Shown here: positions 2,095 to 11,279 of the stretch, piece by piece
Position numbering within the stretch: position 1 is the stretch's first letter
Layout: every line of letters starts with the position of its first letter
Source of the DNA: an uncultured virus (IMG/VR IMGVR_UViG_3300035162_003276)
Lineage: Duplodnaviria > Heunggongvirae > Uroviricota > Caudoviricetes
Reading direction: 5' to 3' (one strand)
Virus record (IMG/VR): IMGVR_UViG_3300035162_003276
Length of the DNA: 64,000 nucleotides
Notes under the pieces: generated by a model
What the model was told of the DNA's origin: nothing
Databases searched by the model: none
What the model saw: only the letters and a program-made list of their open reading frames with translations
Translations under genes and position numbers: made by a program

Positions 2095-2374
2095 GTGCGG
2101 GAGACTAATTACCTCCCACACGGGACTCGCATAATAATCTCCCACGAATGGGGATAGTGCAACCTCCAAATGGTTTAGCGACCTGTCCGTATGATGCAGA
2201 AATGCTTGTATGAGATGATCCTTAGCGGGATGAGTGGAGGAGTTGAAGCAGGTTACTACCGACATTGTACGTTCGTGCTGCTTCTTTCAGGTATACAATA
2301 ACCCTGAGTCCCATGATATATCGCCTTGTAGGGGAGGAACCGTGGCCTTGAACCCGGCGCACTCCCCTACTGGC
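2095..2374 (+). ncRNA. candidate large multibranched ncRNA in the tRNA cluster
   Basis: No credible + strand ORF; closing stem GGGACTC (2122-2128)/GAGTCCC (2306-2312) with nested stems, plus flanking hairpins; directly downstream of a promoter. Confidence 0.65.
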
Positions 2375-3239: not shown

Positions 3240-3253
3240 TTCGGAGAAGTGTA

Positions 3254-3388
3254 ATGGGTGAACAACACAGTGCAGGTAAAGGCGACAAATATCGCCAAGT
3301 AGATAGTAAGAAGTACCGAGAAAACTACGAAAAGATTTTCGGTAAGAAAAAGAAAACAGTCACAAAGAAAAAGGACAAGAAATCATGA
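3254..3388 (+). CDS. small basic hypothetical protein
   Basis: GGAG RBS; GKGDKYR...YRENYEKIFGKK; ATGA coupling to the next gene. Confidence 0.7.
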   Translation: MGEQHSAGKGDKYRQVDSKKYRENYEKIFGKKKKTVTKKKDKKS

Positions 3389-3859: not shown

Positions 3860-4387
3860 ATGCAAGAAAACAGAAACATCATTGACCATTACCACTACTG
3901 GAAACACGATGCAATACTGGCCGATCTTGACGAAAAGCGACATGATTATTCCGTACTTTGTACAAACTTACATAATGACTTCAATATTGCTACTGTTATT
4001 CGTAACGCGAACGCCTTCCTCGCAGAAGAAGTCATCATCTACGGATCAAAGCAGTGGGACCGACGCGGCGCAGTAGGAACCCACAATTACAATCGAATGG
4101 TTTATTTTAAGGAAGACGAGCATGAACGACTTCTGGACAAAATATCTGATTATCATATCGTCTGTGTGGATAACATTGAAGGTAGTCGAGACATTTCTAC
4201 ACTTGATTGGCCTAAAGAAAAGCATACACTACTGGTCTTCGGTCAGGAGCAAGTCGGAGTCCCTAAAGAATTTATCGAAGTAGCAGACGACATTGCGTAC
4301 ATTCCACAATACGGAACTGTTCGTAGTCTGAATGTTGGAACCGCATCGGGAATTGCGATGCACGAATATTGTTCCAAAAGTGCTTGA
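3860..4387 (+). CDS. SpoU/TrmH-family (SPOUT) RNA 2'-O-methyltransferase
   Basis: SPOUT motifs NIATVIRNANAF, LVFGQEQVG, IPQYGTVRSLNVGTA. Confidence 0.9.
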   Translation: MQENRNIIDHYHYWKHDAILADLDEKRHDYSVLCTNLHNDFNIATVIRNANAFLAEEVIIYGSKQWDRRGAVGTHNYNRMVYFKEDEHERLLDKISDYHIVCVDNIEGSRDISTLDWPKEKHTLLVFGQEQVGVPKEFIEVADDIAYIPQYGTVRSLNVGTASGIAMHEYCSKSA

Positions 4388-4411
4388 CAACGAAACTCAT
4401 CGTGGTATAAT
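4384..4411 (+). promoter_or_regulatory. sigma70-type early promoter with extended -10
   Basis: TTGACA-N16-TATAAT; ATG follows after 6 nt. Confidence 0.85.
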
Positions 4412-8886: not shown

Positions 8887-9616
8887 TTTAGACTGTCCTC
8901 CTCGGCTTATGCCGATGACGAGTGTGACCGTACCCGATACGGATAAACTCATTACGGTCTCTGAAATTCAGACAGATACCAGAACTATTATCGCATCATA
9001 TGATACATTCATGCGAGATACGATTGGTGCATTTCCTATGGATGGGGAGATCGAATGGACCAACAACTCAGAACAGAAGAGAAGACTACGATACCGTCAG
9101 TCAATTCTTTTGGGTGAAGGTATCATGCCCATCATTCCTCCCGGATTTGAAGAGGTTTGCTGGGAACCATCAACCAGAAGACTCATTACGGTATACGAGC
9201 AAGTTCTCGATCCGGGTCAGAGTTTAACCACTCAAATTTTCTGGGAAATCATGACCAGATCGGAAGGACTTCTTGCAGATGTTAACAGCGATATGTGGGT
9301 TGATATGCAAGATCAGATGCTGGTTGTGGGAGCATTTGGAACTGATAATCCTCTGTATGATCTCGATCAGAGTGGTTTGGTCGATGGCGCAGATTTAGAA
9401 ATCCTGCTAAACCAATGGTCTGAATCTTCGGATGACTCTCTTGATGAGGCAAACGCTGGTCCCGATCCGGATCCAGTGGATCCTCCAGTAGAAGTGGTCA
9501 ATGGATCATTCAACGAGGCAGATCATATCTTCAAACTTACTTTCAATGAACAACCCAGTGATGCGAATAGGGGAGGGCATTGGATTGTCCCAAAAGCGGG
9601 TTGGCGGTTGATCTAA
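8813..9616 (+). CDS. exported protein with a dockerin-like (double EF-hand) domain
   Basis: Signal peptide ...VAAHG|Q; ADVNSDMWVDMQD and YDLDQSGLVDGADLEILLNQW. Confidence 0.8.
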   Translation: MKLQMYQSATLAVSLSVAAHGQVNDLDCPPRLMPMTSVTVPDTDKLITVSEIQTDTRTIIASYDTFMRDTIGAFPMDGEIEWTNNSEQKRRLRYRQSILLGEGIMPIIPPGFEEVCWEPSTRRLITVYEQVLDPGQSLTTQIFWEIMTRSEGLLADVNSDMWVDMQDQMLVVGAFGTDNPLYDLDQSGLVDGADLEILLNQWSESSDDSLDEANAGPDPDPVDPPVEVVNGSFNEADHIFKLTFNEQPSDANRGGHWIVPKAGWRLI

Positions 9617-10008
9617 TCAAAGGAGACTTCGGAGTCGCAGACGACTCCGGCTCTGGAGGTCAAGCCGCCATCTCGGTATCGACGTACGGGTATCAGTCAG
9701 TGAATTTAGATAATGATACAATGTCTGTTGATGAATGGGTCTCAGGAAATCCCAACGCAAAGTGGGTTATTGAGGTCTATCGAGATGGTGAGATGATTGG
9801 ATCCGTTGCAACGGATTCTCAGAATGTTACGGGTAGGGCACAAGTACAACCACCTGATGGATCAAGGCAGTATGGCAACGGAATCTGGTGGGCTAATTTA
9901 CTAAAACCCGATCAATTTCAGATTGGAGATCAGTGGGTGGTGTATGGGTGGAATGATATGAATCCAATTATCAACCAATATCCACCCGAGAGATTCGTTG
10001 ATTTATAA
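9580..10008 (+). CDS. probable -1-frame continuation of the dockerin protein
   Basis: 142-codon ORF in the -1 frame overlapping the upstream gene, with no good start of its own. Confidence 0.55.
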   Translation: MDCPKSGLAVDLIKGDFGVADDSGSGGQAAISVSTYGYQSVNLDNDTMSVDEWVSGNPNAKWVIEVYRDGEMIGSVATDSQNVTGRAQVQPPDGSRQYGNGIWWANLLKPDQFQIGDQWVVYGWNDMNPIINQYPPERFVDL

Positions 10009-10011
10009 ATA
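10004..10011 (+). promoter_or_regulatory. T4-type late promoter
   Basis: TATAAATA. Confidence 0.6.
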
Positions 10012-10118
10012 TTGTTGGGTCGGGCAGACTGCGAACTACGCCATTCAATAAGGCGCGTCACTTTTCTGTGTTTCATGGAACTGCCAAAAGGAATTTCGCT
10101 ACCTTTCGACCGCATAGT
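10012..10118 (+). ncRNA. candidate late-expressed structured RNA
   Basis: Nested stems GGTCG/CGACC, GGCAG/CTGCC, CGCC/GGCG, AAAGG/CCTTT between a late promoter and a terminator. Confidence 0.45.
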
Positions 10119-10119
10119 G

Positions 10120-10147
10120 GAAACACCCCCGTTTCGGGGGTGTTTTC
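10120..10147. terminator. bidirectional intrinsic terminator
   Basis: AAACACCCCC-GTTTC-GGGGGTGTTT between convergent units. Confidence 0.85.
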
Positions 10148-10151
10148 ATCA

Positions 10152-11279
10152 TCATCTCTTTACTTTTTTGAATACAGTTAACCTTGGTACTTTGGTCGCG
10201 TCCTTCAATTTGAAGAACTGACCAGTTGTATTTCTAGTTTCAGACGCAGCGGAAACTCCCGTTGGGAAAGTTATGCGTGTTTCGCCTGATGCACCACTGG
10301 TTTTTACTCTGTTTAATTTAATTCCTTGGTTTGGACCACTAACTCCCTCATAATCAATGTAGACTATGGATCTGAAGTTTAATTTTGGTCCACCGAAGAC
10401 TGTCAGACTGGAATCATTCGTCTGAAATCGTATTTCATTGACTTTTACTTGATAATTACCATCTTTAATGTTGGTAGATTCGAATCCACCACTAAAACCA
10501 AATGTTCCGTTCTGATTATCCTTCTTTGTGTTCAGAGATGGAGTCACAGTTTGCTTCTCGAACGTGAATGATGCAATGTCAAGGGATACACCTTCGGTAT
10601 CATTTATCTTATCGAGTGCATCTGACAAATTGGCATCGTTTGATTCTGGTAAAACCTTAAAAGAAGATCCCACTACTTGCAAATCTGCACTAAATCCACC
10701 GAAGACCACCTCTGTTTTCTCTTCGGCTTTACCAGAAACTACAAACTCTTCTAGGTTATTGTCATAGAAGGTAATTTTACCGTCAGTGTCCGACTCTAAC
10801 TCTATTGCGAAGTTTGCAGTCGAGAATCCACGGTCCTTCGCTTCTTGTATTAACGGTTTGACATTGAAAGCAATTGGTTGATCTACGAAAACATTCTTTG
10901 GAATTGACTTTTCAACCGACGAAACTTCAAATCTTGTCATGTCGTAAGTATAATTATCAAATCCAGTTTGGTTTTTATCTAAAAGTTTAACTATTTCCTT
11001 ACCACCCGTAAAATTACGGTCAACTTTATTGATCGTCAGTGTGAGGTAAGACTCAGAAGCTTTGTCAGATCCTGAAAACACTGTATTTCTAGGGGTTTCC
11101 AGCTCAAAATTAACAAACAGATTCATCACTCCCCCGACCTGTGGAGTACGAGACTGATTTCCACTTTTGTCGATGGATATGTGATCGGTTTCATCAAAGA
11201 AACCAGCAACATCAGCCCTACTAGCAAAGTAGAAACTTTTTCTATATGATCTCTTCGACGATCTAGATGTCAAACTCAT
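10152..11279 (-). CDS. hypothetical protein (probably virion-associated)
   Basis: 375-aa ORF, ATGA-coupled to the upstream gene. Confidence 0.7.
   Translation of the reverse strand: MSLTSRSSKRSYRKSFYFASRADVAGFFDETDHISIDKSGNQSRTPQVGGVMNLFVNFELETPRNTVFSGSDKASESYLTLTINKVDRNFTGGKEIVKLLDKNQTGFDNYTYDMTRFEVSSVEKSIPKNVFVDQPIAFNVKPLIQEAKDRGFSTANFAIELESDTDGKITFYDNNLEEFVVSGKAEEKTEVVFGGFSADLQVVGSSFKVLPESNDANLSDALDKINDTEGVSLDIASFTFEKQTVTPSLNTKKDNQNGTFGFSGGFESTNIKDGNYQVKVNEIRFQTNDSSLTVFGGPKLNFRSIVYIDYEGVSGPNQGIKLNRVKTSGASGETRITFPTGVSAASETRNTTGQFFKLKDATKVPRLTVFKKVKR

Follow-up and report, generated by a model that had tools for sequence, protein, structure and literature searches.

The stretch of DNA analysed here, called the window below, comprises 64,000 nucleotides (nt) of an uncultured virus of the Caudoviricetes (IMG/VR record IMGVR_UViG_3300035162_003276), and the element in question is a structured non-coding RNA encoded at 2078-2379 inside a cluster of transfer RNA (tRNA) genes. 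Judged from covariance-model comparisons, the RNA is almost certainly a homologue of the manA RNA family (Rfam RF01745), and it represents a divergent, distinct and sub-threshold branch of that family, termed group B; the branch itself is what is new. Five observations carry the argument, namely homology to manA, a well-defined fold, a promoter of its own, conservation limited to the RNA and covariation of a loop-loop pair, and as an explanation of the whole we lean towards a manA-family RNA that is highly structured and free-standing.

At the Rfam gathering thresholds only 13 tRNAs are annotated in the whole window. Below them, the whole RF01745 model (positions 1-192 of 192) aligns to 2096-2317 with 48.6 bits, the gathering score being 55.2 (E = 1.7e-11 in a 511-nt search and 2.1e-9 when the whole window is compared with 4227 families). 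tmRNA, RNase P, signal recognition particle (SRP) RNA, 6S, GOLLD and ROOL gave no match at E <= 0.1 in the search of the whole window against Rfam. A first-pass annotation, made by a model from the letters alone, had remarked on the lack of tmRNA, RNase P and SRP signatures, and rightly so. It had also proposed a comparison with Rfam, which returned manA, below its gathering score, and none of GOLLD, ROOL and 6S at that cutoff. Its suggestion of a possibly new RNA family has to be given up in view of the full-length match (E = 2e-9), the reverse search and the shared covarying fold; manA had been mentioned there only among the known examples. By the standard that the annotation itself had set, a match to a known family, most of the novelty is removed.

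The reverse search was made with R1, a covariance model built from the window alone. R1 finds 27 of the 65 canonical manA loci described below (13.6-32 bits, E from 2e-9 to 5e-3), and eight of those found score 160-174 bits when rechecked in Rfam; with default filters it gives no match to the manA copies of phages S-CREM1, P-SSM2, ACG-2014f and S-SSM7. The order of helices in the RF01745 model (5' hairpin, closing stem, arm, three-hairpin domain, long arm and conserved 3' hairpin) is that of the window, which also has, as GGTATACAATAACCCTGAGTCCCA, the conserved loop GGUAUACAnUAAyCC of the 3' hairpin, adjacent to the closing ...UCCCA. Two manA features differ. Group B lacks the complementarity between the loops of the first and third domain hairpins (UGGU with ACCA), and in place of the position in a 5' untranslated region (UTR) ahead of a protein gene, after which Rfam types the family as 'Cis-reg', the next gene is tRNA-Glu and varies among the relatives. 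With 13 of 54 canonical copies abutting a tRNA as well, the 5'-UTR position is not shared by the whole family. With the homology secure, the Rfam threshold not reached and the complementarity of the first and third loops missing, the window RNA is best described as a variant of a known family.

Relatives were collected from viral contigs with the motif pattern GGTATACANTAANCCNNNNTCCCA, which retrieved 84 stretches, and 80 loci were analysed. Fourteen carry the exact 24-mer of the window and make up group B, 65 are canonical manA and one (L106) is a chance match. R1 scores group B at 110-282 bits. The canonical copies reach 96.6-181.6 bits with the Rfam manA model, while 11 group-B relatives and the further-diverged L207 lie at 44-54.9 bits, all of them sub-threshold. 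A second pattern, which demands both TTAGCG loops of the domain, gave mostly chance matches; 7 of the 80 loci examined match R1, so that at least seven are relatives, and at least L214, L185, L206 and L207 were added in this way. Two of these, L185:311-529(-) and L206:326-543(+), are more distant relatives with 98-112 bits from R1 and no match to the Rfam manA model at E <= 0.01; their domain stem is fully compensated and their loop-loop pair altered. The locus L207:332-560(+), with 44 bits in Rfam, is a third manA-like lineage that combines a canonical-type junction, GGCTGAATAA, with the TTAGCG loops of group B.

Conservation sets in at a 5' leader of about 20 nt, ACAAnTGAATA...AATGTG (2078-2095, + strand, as for all elements of the RNA), whose position before the first hairpin is defined by 11 distinct relatives, promoter-less ones included, and it ends right after GAGTCCCAT; the flanks are unrelated. 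The 5' hairpin (2096-2120) corresponds in the cmscan alignment to manA model positions 1-25, and 4 of its 7 pairs are changed on both sides within group B. The manA-type core of 192 nt (2122-2313), supported by the RF01745 match and by covariation, is closed by GGGACTC (2122-2128) with GAGTCCC (2306-2312), followed by A2313. It opens with an arm, ATCTCCCA-CGAA-TGGGGAT, legible in the letters within 2129-2160. The three-hairpin domain that follows (2163-2240) is held by the stem CCTCCA (2163-2168) with TGGAGG (2235-2240), given by the energy fold and with 5 of 6 pairs changed on both sides. In the fold, the domain consists of a first hairpin (2172-2183) with the loop TTAGCG at 2175-2180, a long middle hairpin (2185-2216) capped by GAAA at 2199-2202 within GCA-GAAA-TGC (2196-2205), and a third hairpin (2218-2231) with a second TTAGCG loop at 2222-2227. 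Next comes the long arm (2245-2284), GAAGCAG (2245-2251) with CTGCTTC (2278-2284), whose outer stem has 4 of 6 pairs changed on both sides and whose loop holds ATTGTA (2264-2269). The core ends with a hairpin (2288-2306), CAGG (2288-2291) with CCTG (2303-2306), identified by pattern scan; it bears the most conserved loop of the family, GTATACAATAAC, with TACAAT at 2294-2299. Beyond the core, the fold shows a separate GC-rich 3' hairpin (2328-2371) of GTAGGGGAG (2328-2336) with CTCCCCTAC (2363-2371); it has no good T run, and the terminator scan made no call there. All helices, loops and flanking hairpins named in the first-pass annotation are found where it had placed them; the acceptor/T-arm-like geometry that it saw in the CAGG/CCTG arm next to the closing stem was supported by no test.

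The minimum free energy (MFE) fold of 2080-2379 has -103.1 kcal/mol and contains the helices listed, against a mean of -84.3 +/- 4.8 kcal/mol for shuffled sequences (z = -3.9, 0 of 200 as stable). The RNA structure thus exceeds chance, and conservation and covariation in the relatives back it. The leader (ACAAn) could pair with the long-arm loop over only 4 bp in the window. A pairing of the 5' hairpin loop CUAA with the UUAG of both domain loops was also considered and dropped; L185 and L206 carry UUGAUCG there.

Covariation was assessed on three alignments by counting the pairs that are changed on both sides, relative to slid controls. In group B, aligned with the structure-blind program MAFFT (11 distinct sequences), pairing reaches 98.3% of cells, and both sides have changed in 10 of 69 pairs, against 0-2 in the slid controls. 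When L214, L185 and L206 are included (14 distinct sequences), 98.2% of cells are paired and 22 of 69 pairs are changed on both sides against 1-5, so that the search for homologues in viral contigs with a covariation check, which the first-pass annotation had called for, came out in favour of the fold. In the joint alignment of canonical and group-B sequences (31 distinct), which was fitted to the model itself, 93.2% of 1800 cells are paired, and changes on both sides affect 46 of 69 pairs, compared with 5-14 in the slid controls. The two inner helices of the long arm, taken from the energy fold, are unsupported, with 72.7-80.5% and ~93-93.8% of cells paired and 1 of 7 pairs changed on both sides.

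A further contact links two loops of the core. ATTGTA in the loop of the long arm (2264-2269) is complementary to TACAAT in the loop of the 3' hairpin (2294-2299), and a complement of at least 5 nt in the same register is present in 50 of 51 distinct cores, the exception being the chance match L106. The two sides change together, as AATGTA/TACATT, ACTGTA/TACAGT and ATTGTA/TACAAT. MAFFT misaligned canonical and group-B sequences in the 3' half, and a short anchored alignment of 25 distinct sequences was used instead. In it all 25 sequences form the five inner pairs, and one pair is AU in 15, UA in 7 and CG in 3 and unpaired in none; of the two outer pairs, one fails in 7 and the other in 11 sequences. 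A second compensated change is seen in L185 and L206, where TCGTA stands with TACGA.

We also looked at how the RNA is distributed. The region 2030-2380 gave no blastn match in distant mode among 50,697 phage records, and the nearest virus record available (G001) has neither the RNA nor the DNA of this region. The open reading frame (ORF) at 3860-4387 served as a marker: among 80 loci around its relatives the RNA occurs only in L006, identical to the window, and the loci of seven close relatives have no manA match at E <= 0.01. The RNA is found elsewhere on at least two of the contigs with such an ORF (L132 on the contig of L009 and L214 on that of L013), and its distance to the marker ORF is 1.6 kb in the window versus ~10 kb in a related contig. 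Absence from the 5-kb flanks in 79 of 80 related-contig loci makes the element dispensable or mobile, a point in favour of a non-functional spacer, a decayed tRNA or another remnant with chance helices. To such an origin we give hardly any credence, in view of a mean column identity of 95% among 11 distinct group-B cores against unrelated flanks, the compensatory changes in 22 of 69 pairs, the folding energy (z = -3.9) and the homology to a curated family.

The RNA is preceded by a sigma-70-type promoter on the + strand (2044-2071), TTGACA at 2044-2049 and TATAAT at 2066-2071 with a 16-nt spacer, which matches the consensus at 12 of 12 positions and from which transcription would start near 2078-2080. 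At the equivalent position, this perfect promoter recurs in half (6 of 12) of the distinct group-B loci. Across the family, a promoter with at least 10 of 12 matches lies at a fixed distance in 33 of 51 distinct loci, with 0 in downstream control regions; the distance from the end of the -10 box to the core is 27-32 nt in canonical copies versus 50-56 nt in group B. Several of the loci missed by the promoter scan show TTGACA...TATAAATA by eye. In many canonical copies (L086, L101, L112-L114, L133, L156 and L158), TTGACA upstream of manA is followed by GTGCTATAAATA, whose -10 element can thus also be read as TATAAATA, the T4-type late-promoter consensus; these loci are outside the promoter count. 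According to the ORF list there is no credible ORF in 2022-2379: those on the + strand have 20, 21, 36 and 53 amino acids, the 53-amino-acid frame extending into tRNA-Glu, and a 141-amino-acid ORF on the - strand over the RNA region crosses two tRNA genes. The view of the first pass that a structured non-coding RNA with its own promoter sits inside a phage tRNA cluster is thereby borne out, by the lack of a credible ORF, the 12/12 promoter and the fold (z = -3.9).

At the 3' side, hairpins homologous to that of the window lie a few bases past the core in 6 of 12 distinct group-B loci and are followed by a T run; their sequences are not conserved. In MFE folds of core plus tail, no pair joins the two in 8 of 10 cases (energy model only). 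The hairpin of the window lacks the T run, and read-through into tRNA-Glu is therefore likely. Four relatives (L104, L100, L090 and L140) have, instead of a terminator hairpin, an element of ~75 nt that lies ~10-90 nt past the core and contains a T-arm-like GGTTCGACTC and a loop GUACAA complementary to the long-arm loop; tRNA-Gly follows at +129/130.

RNA libraries were also considered. Words sampled from 1900-2700 occur, at shares of 10-28%, in 19 RNA-library runs of 17 studies; the word shares of 0.10-0.18 in the 16 unmapped runs are not evidence. Contigs were mapped for four runs from four studies, and stretches of 1900-2700 without a contig carry no weight. In run X3 (oligo-dT), a contig covers 2111-2314, continues into a tail of the L100 type and then into a run of A; the RNA of this relative ends ~20 nt past the core before the run of A, which hints at a polyadenylated 3' end. 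Run X1 gave contigs over 2164-2314, which leads on into an L104-type tail, and over 2006-2193, a contig of X5 bridges 2242-2391 into tRNA-Glu, and X4 covers only 2497-2667. The core contigs, from metatranscriptome libraries of three studies, are consistent with transcription, short of proof and of mapped ends.

What follows the RNA bears on whether it acts in cis. By locus, the downstream gene is a small ORF (L148, L119, L134 and L155), tRNA-Gly at +129/130, tRNA-Gln at +56 or, in the window, tRNA-Glu at +66, and a tRNA lies within 150 nt after the core in 6 of 12 group-B loci. Among published records, the manA of S-CREM1 is flush between tRNA-Leu and tRNA-Asn and that of S-SSM7 abuts tRNA-Gly, and the copies of P-SSM2 and ACG-2014f precede protein-coding genes. 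In Synechococcus phage S-CREM1 (L002, record 9057-11032) we also noticed wcaG, manA and abiF RNAs interleaved with seven tRNA genes. A cis-acting leader or riboswitch, in which an unknown metabolite would control whether transcription continues past the 3' hairpin into tRNA-Glu and on to small ORFs for membrane proteins (2477-2815), accords with the original rating of manA as cis-regulatory and probable riboswitch, made from 5'-UTR positions (Weinberg et al. 2010, PMC2864571). Many junction nucleotides are moreover invariant within a group and different between groups, as in variant riboswitch classes, and on such a reading group B would be a variant with altered ligand specificity. The reading also stays alive because the four relatives with a small ORF show the order of promoter, fold, hairpin with T run, ribosome-binding site and ORF. 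Against it, 8 of the 10 folds keep the hairpin structurally apart from the core, its sequence varies from locus to locus, and no alternative pairing is evident; the downstream genes are heterogeneous, with tRNAs among them; the window hairpin lacks a T run; and full-text literature searches found no report of a manA ligand. A tRNA starts within 10 nt after the core in 13 of 54 distinct canonical loci (versus 0 of 12 in group B), which leaves no room for an expression platform in those copies. We thus consider regulation in cis a minority prospect, if the strongest of the rivals, and a free-standing RNA, when set against a cis-regulator, the probable case.

For the free-standing manA-family RNA the following course can be proposed. 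Transcription would proceed from the RNA's own consensus early-type promoter (2044-2071), the manA core would fold at 2096-2317, and the 3' end would be set either by the separate hairpin (2328-2371) or by RNase P cleavage at the 5' end of tRNA-Glu (2380). The product would act as an RNA in its own right and not as a leader regulating the next gene. Its loop at 2264-2269 would pair with that at 2294-2299, within one molecule or between molecules, and this loop-loop contact and the GAAA-capped hairpin are of the kinds by which other manA RNAs self-assemble in vitro, so that assembly is conceivable for the window RNA as well. That oligomers form in infected cells is possible, and we would rather expect that they do not.

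Several points weigh against this proposal. With 48.6 bits the window RNA is not an annotated manA member under the Rfam rule, and 38 of the 65 canonical loci miss E <= 0.01 with R1 under default filters. The support from the loop-loop pair is real but modest, because the independent events are few, roughly three. Promoter, aptamer-sized fold, terminator hairpin and gene are also the layout of a transcriptional riboswitch, and the terminator is indeed followed, in L148, L119, L134 and L155, by a small ORF that has a ribosome-binding site. Two of the 10 folds, those of the L104 and L100 types, do join tail and core, through 31-32 pairs. The RNA-library evidence consists of contigs for which DNA carry-over is possible, and the contig over 2006-2193 spans the promoter. 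As to assembly, the account in the preprint on manA oligomers (bioRxiv 10.64898/2026.07.01.735769) concerns RNA in vitro, at ~3 mg/mL and with 10 mM Mg during folding, and in the text available never a group-B RNA; the L/P numbering of that preprint was mapped onto the window RNA by inference. Since both domain loops are UUAGCG, in which only GC with GC could pair, one of the reported assembly interfaces is not conserved in group B.

The same two loops are the starting point of another explanation, a monomeric trans-acting RNA that binds a protein or another RNA, including the protein decoy with duplicated binding loops put forward in the first-pass annotation. Both loops have the same sequence and do not vary among 14 distinct group-B sequences, the L207 lineage has them too, and a promoter of its own and a place among stable-RNA genes would suit such an RNA. 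The invariance is partly circular, because L185, L206, L207 and L214 were retrieved by the pattern that requires both loops; no partner emerged from the analysis, and the complementarity of these two loops in canonical manA speaks for a contact between RNAs rather than for protein binding. We regard this explanation as improbable.

A more specific version of the free-standing manA-family RNA may be put forward as a speculation that we think unlikely: group B would be a self-assembling phage RNA that has been 're-keyed', a promoter-to-terminator gene like GOLLD and ROOL, with quaternary contacts recast from those of canonical manA. The re-keying would comprise the compensated loop-loop pair, the two domain loops now identical as UUAGCG and the added GNRA-capped hairpin. 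If this were true, group B would have a different assembly code and would form no mixed assemblies with canonical manA RNAs, and manA-type RNAs would be diversified small RNA-only assemblies of marine T4-like phages alongside tRNAs, not riboswitches.

The RNA is flanked by tRNA-Gln(UUG) upstream (1951-2021, + strand; ARAGORN, Rfam tRNA 58.2 bits) and by tRNA-Glu(UUC) downstream (2380-2453, + strand; ARAGORN, Rfam tRNA 63.1 bits), the latter 8 nt past the 3' hairpin. Families of the baseplate hub, the wedge and the tail-tube cap in the window mark the carrier as a T4-like myovirus, and at an identity of its gp6 of 36% or less to pelagiphage HTVC008M, Methylophilales phage Melnitz and cyanophages it belongs to a distant marine lineage. 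Perfect 12/12 sigma-70 promoters, all on the + strand, lie at 971-998, 2044-2071 and 4384-4411 in the first 4.5 kb, which holds 12 promoter-like sites against 5.8 +/- 2.5 in shuffles and looks like an early-gene region dotted with strong host-type promoters. The stretch 2820-2930 (~110 nt), situated before tRNA-Thr, is non-coding and AT-rich with a small hairpin, and its promoter-like sites are weak only. A small conserved ORF, MGxQHxAGKGDKYRxVD..., lies after tRNA-Ala at 3240-3388 in the window; the same ORF, with its own ribosome-binding site, is directly 3' of the RNA terminator in L148, L119, L134 and L155.

Of 14 distinct relatives of the group-B branch in viral contigs, 12 lie, like the window, just under the Rfam threshold (44-55 bits), and two more are invisible to the model. 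At such scores standard annotation leaves group-B genes as blank spacers in phage tRNA clusters, and adding group B to the seed alignment would mend the annotation of manA. The natural differences between the groups coincide exactly with the loops by which the assemblies are reported to be held and thus offer ready-made compensatory-mutation experiments. The findings establish no function for the RNA in infection, and the gain is incremental.

Small RNAs without a known function are familiar from tRNA clusters, as with the stable RNAs C and D (species 1 and 2) among the tRNA genes of phage T4, for which we claim no homology to the window RNA. The closer comparison is with manA itself, described as mainly marine, carried by T4-like cyanophages and located in potential 5' UTRs, with a 'pseudoknot?' between the long arm and the 3' hairpin marked as questionable (Weinberg et al. 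2010, PMC2864571), and later found in 16 cyanophages at 91-173 bits (Zheng et al. 2023, PMC9964418). The window RNA shares with it the closing stem GGGA.../...TCCCA, an AAUAA-rich internal-loop arm, the 3' hairpin loop GGUAUACAnUAAyCC, the covarying loop-loop pair, marine T4-like carriers and a consensus promoter directly upstream. It differs in the junction, CUCGCAUAAUAAUC in place of GUGACUGAAUAAAC in canonical copies, in the first and third domain loops (UUAGCG twice, whereas the canonical loops GGUGGUG and UUACCAG are complementary), in the long, GAAA-capped middle hairpin of group B and in the extra conserved leader of ~20 nt.

Ren et al. (bioRxiv 10.64898/2026.07.01.735769) reported cryo-electron microscopy structures of manA RNAs as decamers and as a 60-subunit cage, closed oligomers built from pentamers and held either by L5-L7' and L8-L9' kissing loops or by a GNRA loop-receptor contact with L5-L7' and L3-L8'. 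By our mapping, L8-L9' would correspond to 2264-2269 with 2294-2299, L5-L7' to the two domain loops and the GNRA loop to GAAA 2199-2202. The complementarity of L5 and L7 is absent in group B, and no group-B RNA is among those described in the available text. The words 'tRNA' and 'in vivo' do not occur in the main text of the preprint, which is likewise silent on genomic context, and manA has been a riboswitch candidate since 2010 with no ligand reported; literature searches for further reports of a manA ligand or function found none.

GOLLD and ROOL are phage and prophage RNAs of unknown function that occur 'often near tRNA islands' and form closed RNA-only assemblies, and the kissing loops between their molecules first came to notice through covariation of tertiary pairs (Kretsch et al. 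2025, PMC12286853). They are unlike the window RNA in size (~600-800 nt versus ~220 nt), and their models do not match it at E <= 0.1. Still, a promoter of their own at a fixed distance, a terminator that is separate or a tRNA that abuts, and variable neighbours argue that manA-type RNAs are RNA genes in their own right, like GOLLD and ROOL.

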